Source of the DNA: Candidatus Poribacteria bacterium
GTDB lineage: Bacteria > Poribacteria > WGA-4E > WGA-3G
Reading direction: 5' to 3'
Length of the DNA stretch: 64,000 bases
Assembly (NCBI GenBank): GCA_965214095.1
Contig: OZ243938.1
Location: forward strand, 1 to 64,000
This document shows, one piece after another, positions 36,047 to 51,670 of the stretch. The position numbers and the translations under genes are program-made. The first letter of the stretch is position 1, and each line of letters starts with the position of its first letter. The notes below the pieces were generated by a model. The model was not told the origin of the DNA. It made no database searches and saw only the letters and a program-made list of their open reading frames with translations.

Positions 36047-36979
36047 ATGCCTACAGGACGGATAAAATATTATAATTTAGATAAAGGATTCGGTTTTATA
36101 GCACAAGATAACAGTGAAGAGGATGTTTTCTTACACAGTTCCGCTATTAAATATGCCGACTATGAGGAACTACGTGTTGGTCAGCGCGTTAAATATAATG
36201 TCGTTGAAGGAGATAAAGGATTAGTAGCGAAGAATGTGGAAGTCTTGCTAACCCCTACTGAAAGAAGATGGTTACGACAAGGCAAAACAATAATTCCAAG
36301 AGGATATTCTGGATTCCAAGCTCAGAATCAAGATCAAGCCAGTAATGCTACGCAAGCATTTTCTGACAATTCAGTGAATAAGAATGAAGATGAGCATCCA
36401 AAACATACCCCCACAGATTGGAAAAGTAGTTCTCAGAAGCAAACATCGGGATTACGTTCCAATAGAGAACATACTGAAAAAGAACAAACTTCCAGGCAGT
36501 TAAGTTTCGGAGACCTCTATATCCTCAAACAGATAAATCAGGAAACTCCGATGTATTTTGCTATGTACAATCATGTGAATTTTCCTGCCACTGTTTTAGA
36601 AATGACACTGTCAGGATTTACTCTTAATTGTAATGATAGTGAAGAAGTTGTAAAGAAGTCTGACATCAAGTATTGCTATAAGGATATTGATGCCCAAAAT
36701 GTCACTGCACTACTTGAATATAAAGATGAAGTAAAAGACAAGCAACTGCAGCCGGTTGAAACAGATGATGAGCAATATTCCATTGATACTGAGGCAGTCA
36801 ATCATGCCCGACAGGATGGAAATGCTATCCAGGTTACACTACGCGAAGGTGAGTTTTTTCAAGGGATTATTGATTGGATTAGTCCGTATGAAATAAAGTT
36901 AGTATTGAAAAATGGTGCCAAGATTGTTGTATTTCAACATGCTATCTGTGATTTGGCAGTTGTCAAAATGGAGGAATAA
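36047..36979 (+). CDS. Cold-shock domain protein fused to two Hfq/Sm-like domains
   Basis: CSD aa 1-66 (KGFGFI RNP1, VFLH RNP2); aa ~154-212 ending KKSDIKYCYK; aa ~246-305 IQVTLREGEFFQGIIDWISPYEIKL...IVVFQHAI, aligned by eye to Hfq. CSD call is firm, Hfq calls less so. Confidence 0.75.
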   Translation: MPTGRIKYYNLDKGFGFIAQDNSEEDVFLHSSAIKYADYEELRVGQRVKYNVVEGDKGLVAKNVEVLLTPTERRWLRQGKTIIPRGYSGFQAQNQDQASNATQAFSDNSVNKNEDEHPKHTPTDWKSSSQKQTSGLRSNREHTEKEQTSRQLSFGDLYILKQINQETPMYFAMYNHVNFPATVLEMTLSGFTLNCNDSEEVVKKSDIKYCYKDIDAQNVTALLEYKDEVKDKQLQPVETDDEQYSIDTEAVNHARQDGNAIQVTLREGEFFQGIIDWISPYEIKLVLKNGAKIVVFQHAICDLAVVKMEE

Positions 36980-49059: not shown

Positions 49060-50505
49060 GTGGAAAACTATGATTTGACTATTATCGGTGGCGGGAGTGC
49101 GGGACTTGTGCTGGCAGTTGCTGGCGCAAAGCTTGGAAAAAAGACCGCACTCATTGAGAAACACCGAATCGGAGGGGATTGTCTTTGGACAGGATGTGTG
49201 CCTTCTAAAGCATTACTTAAAGCAGCGAAGGTAGCAAACTACATACAGAATGCAGATAAATATGGAATAAGTACCTATGAAACGAAATCAAATTGGCAAA
49301 GAGTTATGGACTATGTCCGAAGTACACAACACGTCATTGAAGATGAACATGATAACCCTGAACGATTCAGAGAAATGGGGGTTGACGTCATCTTTGGCGA
49401 TGGACAATTTGAATCACGCGATACCTTTGTTGTAGAAGATAAAGAAAATGGACAGACAAGACAGTTAAAAAGCAAGAGATATGTAATTTCCACCGGTTCT
49501 CGTCCACTGGCACCACCGATACCCGGTTTGGATGAATGTGGTTATCTTGACAGTGAAAATGTATGGGAATTAGAAGAACTGCCAGAAAGATTGCTTGTGA
49601 TTGGCGCAGGCCCCATCGGGATAGAATTGGGACAAGCTTTCCATCGACTCGGTTCCAAGGTTACTATAGCACAACGAAGTGACCGTATCCTAACAAAAGA
49701 GGATGCAGATGTATCAGAAAAGATGCAACAATACCTGACATCTGGCGGAATTTGCATACGATTATATACTGAAATAACTATGGTAGAGAAACATGAAAAC
49801 GGTGTCAAAGTATCGTTCTTACATAGTTCACTACCAGATTCCAACGAAGATAACATAGAGGTGTTTGACAAAATACTGGTTGCTGCAGGTCGTGCACCAA
49901 ATATAGAAGGTTTAGGATTAGAAAATATCGGGGTTAAGATTGGTAAAAACGGTATTGTTGTAAATGACCAACTACAGACACATGTGAAAAACATATTTGC
50001 TGCAGGAGATGTGATTGGACATTATCTATTTACACATGTTGCAGCATTTCAGGCACAACTTCTCGTACGAAATTTCCTGTTACCTTTTCCTAAAAAGATA
50101 GATTATTCAGTTGTACCTTGGACTACGTTTTGTGATCCAGAGATTGCAAGATGTGGATTGACAGAGTTACAGGCACGCGCACAATATGGTGATGTTGATG
50201 TGTTTAGGTTAGAACAAAAGGACGTTGACAGAGCCGTTGCGGAGGGTGAAACACTGGGATTTTCAAAGGTAATCGCAACGAAATGGCGTGGGAAGATTGT
50301 AGGTGTACACCTTGTTGGGACAAGTGCTGGCGAGGTAATACATGAGTATGTTCTGGCAATGCAAGAAGGAATTCCATTACGGAAGTTGGGTGGTATGATG
50401 CATGTCTATCCTACATATTCTACAAGTGTATGGAGGGTCACTGCAAAATGGTTGTCAGAAGGGTCGTTAGTCAAATCTCTACGGAAGATTGTTGGAGCTG
50501 GATAA
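49060..50505 (+). CDS. Class I pyridine nucleotide-disulfide oxidoreductase (Lpd/MerA-like)
   Basis: GGGSAG, GGDCLWTGCVPSK redox disulfide, GAGPIG, AAGD, HVYPT; no MerA C-terminal Cys pair. Confidence 0.88.
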   Translation: MENYDLTIIGGGSAGLVLAVAGAKLGKKTALIEKHRIGGDCLWTGCVPSKALLKAAKVANYIQNADKYGISTYETKSNWQRVMDYVRSTQHVIEDEHDNPERFREMGVDVIFGDGQFESRDTFVVEDKENGQTRQLKSKRYVISTGSRPLAPPIPGLDECGYLDSENVWELEELPERLLVIGAGPIGIELGQAFHRLGSKVTIAQRSDRILTKEDADVSEKMQQYLTSGGICIRLYTEITMVEKHENGVKVSFLHSSLPDSNEDNIEVFDKILVAAGRAPNIEGLGLENIGVKIGKNGIVVNDQLQTHVKNIFAAGDVIGHYLFTHVAAFQAQLLVRNFLLPFPKKIDYSVVPWTTFCDPEIARCGLTELQARAQYGDVDVFRLEQKDVDRAVAEGETLGFSKVIATKWRGKIVGVHLVGTSAGEVIHEYVLAMQEGIPLRKLGGMMHVYPTYSTSVWRVTAKWLSEGSLVKSLRKIVGAG

Positions 50506-50533
50506 GGATTAAATGTATATAAGGTTTAGCTGT

Positions 50534-50655
50534 AAAAGAAATTGAGTCGGAAAAATGCAGCCGGTTTAGAATTCTCAGGGTTTCTAACCTAACACAATGA
50601 CAACTAACAGTTGTGCATAAATATGACTGCTATTCCGACTCACCTAAGGAGGCAT
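50534..50655 (-). ncRNA. Candidate structured small RNA with 5' anti-Shine-Dalgarno sequence
   Basis: 10-bp perfect outer stem (50543-50552 / 50633-50642), second helix with a G-U pair only on the minus strand, two inner hairpins, 5' CCUCCUUA, 3' U-rich tail. Confidence 0.55.
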
Positions 50656-50666
50656 ATTTCCTTATT

Positions 50667-50683
50667 AGCAATTTCTATGCTAA
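50667..50683 (-). promoter_or_regulatory. Near-consensus sigma54 -24/-12 promoter (or palindromic operator)
   Basis: Minus strand TTAGCATAGAAATTGCT has exact TGGCA-N6-TTGC spacing with AG in place of GG; also a TTAGCA-N7-TGCTAA palindrome. Confidence 0.4.
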
Positions 50684-50767
50684 CAAAAAGGATATGATTT
50701 TAGTAAGTGTAGATATTATATGTCTAATTTTTGCACACCTATGATGGAAATTTAGACATTGTATCCT

Positions 50768-51670
50768 TTATAGATCTGGCAGTTCTTCTCCGACAATAAG
50801 TCGATATGCCTCACGATATTTCTCACTTGTTTTGGTTATTACATTTTCAGGTAGATTTGGTGCTGGTGGCTGTTTGTTCCAACCAATTTCTGACAAGTAA
50901 TCTCGCACGAATTGCTTATCAAAACTTTGCTGTGGTTTGCCGGGTTCATACAAATCTGCAGGCCAAAAACGTGATGAATCGGGTGTGAATACCTCGTCAA
51001 TTAGAATCAACTCACCATCGCATTGTCCGAATTCAAACTTAGTATCACATAGGATAATCCCTGAGTCTTCGGCATACTTGCTTGCAGCTCTGAACAGTGC
51101 GAAACTGATGTCAATTAATGTATCCGTGAGTTCCGTTCCAACTTGATCCTTCATTTCATCAATTGTTATCGGTTCATCATGTTCACCTTGTTCTGCCTTA
51201 GTCGTTGGTGTGAAAAGCAGTTCAGGTAACTTATCCGACTCGCGCAATCCCGCGGGAAGTTTCTGCCCACAAATTTCTCCTGATTTCTGATAGGATGCCC
51301 ATCCAGAACCTGCGAGATAACCTCTCACAACGCATTCAACATCAACCCTATCGGCTTTACGGACAAGCATTGAACGTCCGTTCAGAAGCTTCGCATCAGG
51401 TTGCACTGATTCAGGATAATCTTCCACATCAGTTGAAATCACGTGGTTGTCAACAACGGATTTGGTGTAGTCAAACCAAAATGCTGACAATCCAGTCAGA
51501 ACCCGTCCTTTATCTGGGATACCGTTCGGTAAAACCACATCAAATGCTGACAATCTGTCAGTCGATATAATTAGAAATTCATCACCAAGATCATACAGAT
51601 CCCTAACTTTACCGCTATGGTGGGGTGTTAAGTTAGTTAATTCTGTTGATGTAATAACGTTTTGAGACAT
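50768..51670 (-). CDS. purC: Phosphoribosylaminoimidazole-succinocarboxamide (SAICAR) synthase
   Basis: GKVRDLY, DRLSAFD, ECVVRGYLAGSG, DTKFEFG, DEVFTPDSSRFW, SFDKQFVRD. Confidence 0.97.
   Translation of the reverse strand: MSQNVITSTELTNLTPHHSGKVRDLYDLGDEFLIISTDRLSAFDVVLPNGIPDKGRVLTGLSAFWFDYTKSVVDNHVISTDVEDYPESVQPDAKLLNGRSMLVRKADRVDVECVVRGYLAGSGWASYQKSGEICGQKLPAGLRESDKLPELLFTPTTKAEQGEHDEPITIDEMKDQVGTELTDTLIDISFALFRAASKYAEDSGIILCDTKFEFGQCDGELILIDEVFTPDSSRFWPADLYEPGKPQQSFDKQFVRDYLSEIGWNKQPPAPNLPENVITKTSEKYREAYRLIVGEELPDL

Follow-up and report, generated by a model that had tools for sequence, protein, structure and literature searches.

Locus and predicted RNA

The 262-bp gap between positions 50506 and 50767 of the window (the whole 64,000-nucleotide stretch that was analysed, from contig OZ243938.1 of the Candidatus Poribacteria assembly GCA_965214095.1) separates an FAD-dependent oxidoreductase gene from purC, and the two genes converge. 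On the minus strand of this gap lie an inverted repeat, a sigma-54 promoter element and the gene of a structured RNA of about 120 nt (Table 1). A sequence-only reading of this DNA had listed a promoter-like site, helices, hairpins, a tail and a plus-strand Shine–Dalgarno sequence, all of which were found in place. Its central proposal, an unannotated small RNA gene on the minus strand, was borne out by the promoter, the covariation, the U run, the single genomic copy and the varying neighbours, and we consider it very probable that the locus encodes an independently promoted small RNA.

Table 1. Features of the small RNA locus and associated genes in the window (arrows give the minus-strand 5′ to 3′ direction)
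Feature	Position	Strand	Basis or remark
FAD-dependent pyridine-nucleotide-disulphide oxidoreductase gene	49060-50505	+	One flank of the gap
purC	50768-51670	-	Other flank; upstream same-strand neighbour of the small RNA
Upstream palindrome TGTCTAAATTT ... AAAATTAGACA	50720-50759	-	Imperfect inverted repeat I3
Sigma-54 -24/-12 promoter element TTAGCATAGAAATTGCT	50683->50667	-	Relatives' consensus
Predicted small RNA, ~120 nt	50535-50656	-	Covariance model, fold, covariation
Predicted RNA 5′ start (A)UAUGCCUCCUUAGGUG	50657->50641	-	Sequence
5′ single-stranded or weak-hairpin seed UAUGCCUCCUUAGGU	50642-50656	-	Core CCUCCUU at 50646-50652
Structured body	50543-50642	-	P1, P2, hairpins P3 and P4
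Closing helix P1, UGAGUCGGAA with UUCCGACUCA	50642->50633 with 50552->50543	-	Fold, covariation
Helix P2, GCAGUC with GGCUGC	50630->50625 with 50562->50557	-	Fold, covariation
Hairpin P3	50600-50616	-	Fold, covariation
Hairpin P4, loop with CCCUGA	50563-50589	-	Fold, covariation
U-rich tail AAUUUCUUUU	50542->50534	-	Directly 3′ of P1; presumed termination site
Perfect Shine–Dalgarno sequence TAAGGAGG	50645-50652	+	No ATG, GTG or TTG before 50677
310-aa cold-shock-domain protein	36047-36979	+	N-terminal CSD; only the CSD scores

We infer the 5′ end of the RNA from promoter geometry (±2 nt) and its 3′ end from the U run. The covariance model described below matches positions 50534-50662 of the minus strand with 108.7 bits (E 2.6e-22 in the window's own genome), and the minimum-free-energy fold contains both inner hairpins, ACAAC/GUUGU and GGUUAGAA/UUCUAAACC. 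Folding of both strands, as the sequence-only reading had advised, gave -36.6 kcal/mol and a z-score of -3.8 for the minus strand, with none of 200 shuffles as good, and a z-score of -4.1 for the plus strand; the two are about equal, so folding energy alone cannot pick the strand. A run of at least four U within 12 nt after P1 is present in 75 of 80 distinct family members. A simple scan of 50350-50900 for canonical intrinsic terminators (a short GC-rich hairpin with a loop of 3-8 nt and a T run) returned none, because 80 nt are enclosed by the helix that precedes the U run.

The element occurs once in the 5.25-Mb genome by both blastn and the covariance model, and the next blastn matches are only 15-23 nt long (E 0.6 or higher), which rules out the repeat or mobile element that many genomic copies would have indicated. 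It matches no Rfam family: the Rfam 15 covariance models (including Qrr, GlmY/GlmZ, YrlA, Y_RNA and 6S) gave only chance-level matches in the window region (E at least 1.5), with scores far under the gathering scores, and no match at E <= 1 on the copies of seven relatives. Two small reading frames were rejected as explanations of the element. A minus-strand mini-frame, AUG-CCU-CCU-UAG, exists only where an AUG precedes the seed and is absent in genus g9, and a 43-aa frame on the plus strand has no family match.

The genes around the RNA vary. Its upstream same-strand neighbour is purC in about ten close relatives; in most loci of g9 and in several other species of genus g1 it is rtcB, an RNA ligase gene; the remaining neighbours are restriction-modification, transposase or small unknown-protein genes. 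Downstream, the gene is mostly the convergent oxidoreductase with its amidohydrolase partner, and sometimes an unrelated same-strand gene. The ancestral order was likely rtcB -> RNA <- oxidoreductase <- amidohydrolase, with frequent insertions, and in the window's own genome rtcB now lies 3.7 Mb from the element. Because the flanking genes differ in this way (purC here, rtcB in most relatives), the small RNA can be regarded as its own transcription unit.

Among the g9 loci, inserted genes recur in the interval between rtcB, the convergent oxidoreductase and the small RNA, namely Type ISP restriction-modification genes, transposases or integrases, ECF sigma factors and an RRXRR protein, and the locus looks like an insertion hot spot.

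Distribution, covariation and strand

The small RNA is confined to a single family of Candidatus Poribacteria. Blastn located the gap in 35 of 36 congeneric genomes and in none of 24 genomes from other families. The covariance model found the RNA in all 37 g1 genomes, 51 of 60 from g9, one of two from g10, two of three from g12 and not in the single g11 genome, and it had no match among 47 genomes from three other families of the order. A phylum-wide draw gave matches in 89 of 99 genomes of the family and in 0 of 51 from eight other families. Every genome with a covariance model match had exactly one.

Searches with sequence patterns gave the same picture on a wider scale. The exact promoter-plus-seed pattern occurred at 72 loci in 185,579 species (one genome each), of which 69 carry Candidatus or uncultured Poribacteria in their titles and three 'uncultured bacterium'. 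A looser pattern (promoter, 8-30 nt, CCTCCTTRGG) was present in 93 of 111 family genomes and in 2 of 64 from other families, and its reversed control had no matches. The two matches outside the family, together with two second matches in g9, were discarded as homologues, being leaders of protein genes with their own Shine–Dalgarno sequence and ORF.

Four loci with other sigma-54 promoters, L402 (G129:C1:1352050-1352650), L403 (G112:C51), L390 (G163) and L391 (G078), have transcripts with a CCUCC(C)UCCUUGGG-type stretch at their start, followed by a leader with its own Shine–Dalgarno sequence and an ORF; these are possibly cis-acting anti-Shine–Dalgarno leaders.

Reduced forms of the RNA exist within the family. 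In g10, g12 and genome G075 the promoter, the palindrome, the seed, one stem and the tail are retained and the inner hairpins are lost. The G075 copy (L294/L395, G075:C1:3725623-3725760) keeps promoter, palindrome and seed ahead of a body that is one long hairpin, and it scores only E 0.096 with the covariance model. As this copy is barely detected, genomes negative by the model are not proof of absence, and some of the apparent absences are cases of divergence.

The consensus structure was derived from the base-pair probabilities of 30 aligned minus-strand copies (alignment A1), from which the covariance model (R1) was built. Covariation, one of the checks suggested by the sequence-only reading, was then clear in the helix and the hairpins across relatives. 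In a model-guided alignment of 100 rows (81 distinct sequences), which is fitted to the model and so favours the structure, 87.6% of cells paired and 26 of 38 pairs had changes on both sides. Doubly changed cells numbered 196, against 86.5 ± 12.2 in column shuffles, none of 500 of which reached 196, and the covariation score of 0.254 fell to 0.095 or less when the 3′ partners were slid. A MAFFT alignment had already given 11 pairs changed on both sides. Individual pairs illustrate the exchange: at alignment pair 25-214, 45 sequences have CG and 33 have UA; at pair 36-204, 32 have UA, 29 CG and 13 UG; and the closing helix changes from GAGUCGG/CCGACUC in g1 to AAGCCGG/CCGGCU(C/U) in g9.

Three observations indicate that the minus strand is the functional one: G-U cells outnumber A-C cells by 132 to 48 (in a structure itself derived on the minus strand), the promoter points in this direction, and the U run follows the closing helix. 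A functional plus strand, giving an RNA with a perfect Shine–Dalgarno sequence (a decoy, or a leader whose small ORF is lost or non-canonical) or simply the 3′ end of the oxidoreductase mRNA, would account for the equally good plus-strand fold, for the perfect match of TAAGGAGG and for an RNA-run contig, X19, that links the element with the 3′ end of the oxidoreductase. We nevertheless judge it highly improbable. As the sequence-only reading had observed, no start codon lies at a usable distance from the Shine–Dalgarno sequence (no ATG, GTG or TTG before 50677); the promoter, the palindrome and the U run all have minus-strand orientation; the excess of G-U over A-C cells points the same way; and indels in the relatives are not multiples of three.

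Sigma-54 promoter, upstream palindrome and transcription

The sequence-only reading had recognized a sigma-54-like promoter with one mismatch in the -24 GG, and the relatives confirm it: TGGCA(C/T)-N5-TTGC precedes the RNA in 49 of 49 examined (29 from g1 and 20 from g9, g10 and g12, the latter 20 taken from covariance model matches that do not include the promoter). The promoter of g9 is usually TGGCACGGAAATTGC, which we take to be a full match to the sigma-54 consensus. The distance from the -12 C to CCUCCUU is 14-18 nt in 47 of the 49 relatives and 15 nt in the window, and so transcription is predicted to start 2-5 nt before the motif. In the window the -12 GC at 50669/50668 places +1 near 50656, within a nucleotide of the 50655 proposed earlier.

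Alone among the 50 copies, that of the window has TAGCAT, in which the -24 GG is changed to AG at base 50681. In three RNA runs, contigs from close relatives read C at this position, which restores the GG, and four DNA-type runs contain all 77 sampled words of the stretch, which suggests that the AG allele is real. With its -24 GG mutated, the window copy may be weakly expressed from the sigma-54 promoter, or may have moved to another promoter. A sigma-70-like match, TAGACA-18-TAAAAT, lies just upstream (50726-50697, minus strand); we rejected it as a promoter, one such match being found where 1.8 are expected by chance.

The genome has the machinery that a sigma-54 promoter needs. A check for rpoN found the gene once (PF04552, 194 bits), together with eight strong sigma-54 activators (PF00158, each at least 136 bits), six of them with receiver domains. 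An RtcR-type activator is not evident, the two receiver-less activators beginning directly with the ATPase domain. Around 18 loci of the RNA, no sigma-54 activator or kinase gene was found within 4 kb on either side. Comparison of presence and absence leaves six shared candidates: six of the eight activators occur in RNA-bearing and RNA-free genomes alike, and the other two are absent from some RNA-bearing genomes.

The palindrome upstream of the promoter has 12-nt arms that are 92% complementary, and is centred some 83 bp ahead of the predicted start. Both half-sites are kept in the two large genera, g1 and g9, whereas the spacer and the sequence after it vary, and g9 has one additional related inverted repeat. 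No copy of the palindrome was found beside any other sigma-54-like promoter of the window's own genome. From its position and conservation, the palindrome is a putative enhancer (UAS) for a sigma-54 activator.

Beyond this locus, the window's own genome has 67 further matches to TGGCA(C/T)-N5-TTGC(A/T). Several of them lie inside repeated protein-coding sequence (CC.GATGGCAC...TTGC contexts), and hence not all 67 are promoters.

Public RNA sequencing runs were used as assembled (Logan) contigs, which give no strand, ends or local depth. Two metatranscriptomes of one study, X17 and X18, each contain a contig from a relative of about 90% identity that runs from the oxidoreductase end through the whole gap to the 3′ end of purC, and in X19, from another study, a contig from a relative of about 90% identity spans 50472-50688, including the promoter. 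These contigs cover the element and so place the region in RNA libraries; a small RNA would explain them no better than read-through, antisense transcription or carried-over DNA would.

Coverage continuous with purC, which the sequence-only reading had taken as the mark of a 3′ UTR, is thus what the contigs of a close relative show in two RNA runs, and since contigs carry neither strand nor ends it settles nothing. In such a reading the element would be no independent gene but the 3′ UTR, with terminator, of whichever gene lies upstream (purC in the window, rtcB in other genomes), perhaps processed into a fragment. The X17 and X18 contigs fit this, as does the position of the element, which in every locus inspected has a same-strand gene on its 5′ side. 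The contigs do not represent single transcripts, however, the upstream gene differs between genomes, and the sigma-54 promoter at a fixed distance and the palindrome are kept in 49 of 49 relatives; we therefore think it very unlikely that the element is only a 3′ UTR. Read-through from purC alongside promoter-driven transcription is possible.

The 5′ motif, candidate targets and known regulatory RNAs

The most conserved part of the RNA is its 5′ motif, GCCUCCUU(A/G)GG; across 81 distinct sequences, conservation of GCCUCCUU.GGU is 95% or higher. Within the seed, the bases of CCUU have a mean unpaired probability of 0.8-0.95, the flanks can form a weak 4-bp hairpin, and half of the seed can fall within it. 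The motif had been described as an 8-nt copy of the E. coli 16S rRNA 3′ end. The E. coli-type CCUCCUUA is not the end of this bacterium's own 16S rRNA, which is GGAUCACCUCCUUUCU, and the identity with the RNA is therefore the 7 nt CCUCCUU.

Our data are consistent with a model in which an enhancer-binding protein on the palindrome about 80 bp upstream would activate sigma-54 RNA polymerase at the -24/-12 promoter. Transcription would begin 2-5 nt before GCCUCCUU(A/G)GG, pass through the long helix and the two inner hairpins, and stop in the U run beyond the closing helix. The exposed 5′ motif, mimicking the anti-Shine–Dalgarno end of 16S rRNA, would pair with the Shine–Dalgarno regions of selected mRNAs and block ribosome loading. 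We put the chance that the RNA acts by pairing with ribosome-binding sites at even or slightly better, and regard the combined reading, a family-specific, sigma-54-dependent regulatory RNA of about 120 nt from the minus strand whose 5′ motif pairs with ribosome-binding sites, as probable. Of the earlier interpretation, then, the small RNA gene and its sigma-54 promoter stand, and the blocking of ribosome-binding sites is retained as a proposal.

The third element of that interpretation, that the RNA could be a client of a CSD-Hfq-Hfq protein encoded 14 kb away, found no support in the form proposed. Pfam Hfq had no match at E <= 0.001 in a six-frame translation of the genome. In the 310-aa cold-shock-domain protein, the last ~55 residues give one Hfq-like match, below threshold (Hfq_1 20.6 bits and Hfq 19 bits, against a cut-off of 27), and a likewise sub-threshold match to archaeal Hfq-like structures (E 0.014); one Sm-like domain, rather than the proposed pair, is plausible from these scores, and nothing links the protein to the RNA.

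Candidate targets were sought by ranking the ribosome-binding sites of the window's own genome by contiguous complementarity to the RNA and tracing the best six through 30 genomes of the family. Pairing was scored within each genome, between the RNA and the orthologue found there, and scores of at least 10.5, a threshold set after the data had been seen, were counted among RNA-bearing genomes. The site of a GFO/IDH/MocA oxidoreductase reached this score in 12 of 13 g1 and 7 of 10 g9 genomes and was the sole candidate of the six to keep it in both genera. The STAS protein (5 of 13 and 6 of 10) was rejected, its complementarity being kept only through many G-U pairs. Superoxide dismutase (4 of 13 in g1, 0 of 9 in g9), an unknown 255-aa protein (6 of 12 and 0 of 10), Ldh_2 and GroEL (each 4 of 13 and 0 of 10) were rejected because complementarity is found only in part of g1. 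A search for long complementarity (18-mer, at most four mismatches) gave 40 sites, none of them near-perfect except the gene itself.

The best candidate target is thus the ribosome-binding site of the conserved GFO/IDH/MocA oxidoreductase (C1:2085157 in the window's own genome), which we treat as a lead and not as a finding. At least 11 bp of complementarity are kept in the two genera, and the 3′ flank of the site shifts with the RNA: GGAGG-UAUA/CAU stands opposite AUAUGCC in g1, and GGAGG-CUUA opposite UAAGCC in g9. This match amounts to one evolutionary event and is absent in g10 and g12; within g1 the flank covariation fails in G009, G004 and G002/G070; and any strong Shine–Dalgarno sequence pairs over 7-9 bp with the small RNA. 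The protein falls under all NCBIfam cut-offs, with inositol 2-dehydrogenase as its best match; the favoured target would be a sugar/inositol-type enzyme of its family. Sugar/inositol-type metabolism is prominent in poribacterial symbionts, and the candidate target falls in it.

Another possibility is that the RNA, rather than regulating particular genes, is a signal-controlled anti-Shine–Dalgarno mimic which would compete with 16S rRNA for strong Shine–Dalgarno sites and reprogramme translation broadly. We hold this to be improbable. In other bacteria rtcB is under sigma-54 control, and its product has been linked to repair of the 16S 3′ end; were the broad mimic real, the ancestral adjacency of rtcB would connect the RNA to a ribosome- or RNA-damage response.

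A sigma-54-dependent RNA whose folded body does the work, for instance as a partner that binds or titrates a protein, with the CCUCCUU tip incidental or serving another contact, is unlikely in our assessment, though it draws on several features. The conserved unpaired motifs (UAGGUU and the CCCUGA loop) and the long covarying helix suit such a role, five of the six predicted ribosome-binding-site targets are not conserved, no canonical Hfq was found that might assist pairing, and the ancestral neighbour is an RNA ligase gene. On the other side stand the reduced copies of g10, g12 and G075, which lose the inner hairpins and keep the 5′ motif, the promoter and the tail; their retention of the seed argues that it is the functional core, and it is this motif, rather than the body, that is most conserved. 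We therefore continue to favour a 5′ motif that pairs with ribosome-binding sites.

A full-text literature search found no papers on small RNAs or sigma-54 regulation in Poribacteria, which are uncultivated sponge symbionts. The element constitutes a complete, testable regulatory module, with a candidate enhancer site, a sigma-54 promoter, an RNA with a defined seed and a presumed terminator. It is conserved in about 90% of one family's genomes and offers a first handle on how these bacteria regulate their genes. The covariance model can be used for annotating the small RNA, and the level of the RNA in sponge metatranscriptomes would report on an environmental or host signal.

The RNA forms a new family of a known kind; Qrr and GlmY/GlmZ are its closest counterparts by design, and it is homologous to neither. 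Qrr RNAs are trans-acting base-pairing RNAs of about 100 nt, encoded in several copies and transcribed from a -24/-12 promoter under an upstream-bound NtrC-type activator. The Vibrio system (LuxO and sigma-54) resembles ours in size class and promoter, and presumably also in base pairing and upstream activation. Unlike Qrr, with which it has no sequence or Rfam similarity, the poribacterial RNA has one copy per genome, no adjoining activator gene in the loci inspected, no canonical Hfq detected in its host, and a seed at the very 5′ end that mimics the anti-Shine–Dalgarno sequence. GlmY, which titrates a protein, and GlmZ, which activates glmS, likewise come from sigma-54 small RNA genes (with GlrR), and the window also has a nearby sigma-70-like match, not above chance; no homology connects them to the poribacterial RNA. 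In passages of the sources, LuxO is described as an NtrC homologue controlling Vibrio small RNAs (PMC4878744, PMC11407668), and the GlmY/GlmZ promoters of Enterobacteriaceae as sigma-54 promoters that depend on a dedicated activator and that sigma-70 promoters can overlap (PMC3844500).

The alphaproteobacterial 'cuckoo'/CcsR- and NfeR1-type RNAs with CCUCCUCCC motifs, and 6C, share with this RNA a conserved C/U-rich anti-Shine–Dalgarno motif and, by inference for the poribacterial RNA, the targeting of ribosome-binding sites. In the CCUCCUCCC-type RNAs the motifs lie in hairpin loops and are often repeated, and the promoters are not of the sigma-54 type, whereas the poribacterial RNA has a single motif at its 5′ end, another fold and another phylum as its home. 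The term CCUCCUCCC is associated with PMC4615179, and a passage of PMC6486639 has 6C binding its mRNA targets through C-rich loops.

Finally, the RNA might be Y-RNA-like or linked to RtcB/Ro, part of an RNA repair module and not a regulator of mRNAs. It resembles YrlA RNAs in size, in a long helix that closes a branched body and in the genomic link of these RNAs to rtcB in some bacteria; in most g9 and several g1 loci rtcB is the immediate upstream neighbour and shares the strand of the RNA, the genome encodes a TROVE/Ro-type protein, and Salmonella rtcBA is sigma-54-dependent through RtcR according to a passage of PMC3844500. Against this, neither the element nor its copies in seven relatives match the YrlA or Y_RNA covariance models, rtcB is far from the element in the window's own genome, and the YrlA-like candidates of that genome, two sub-threshold matches, adjoin an rsr-like gene 3.2 Mb away. 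The 5′ end of Y RNAs is not unpaired; that of the small RNA is. We consider membership in such a module most unlikely, and keep to a regulator that would pair through its 5′ end.

The TROVE/Ro60-type gene of the window's own genome lies in G000:C1:3219149-3223069 (853-2559 of L202, minus strand). The two YrlA-like matches (30 bits, E 0.002) lie directly upstream of it on the same strand, at 2593-2672 and 2822-2935 of L202, and are probably Y RNAs of a poribacterium.
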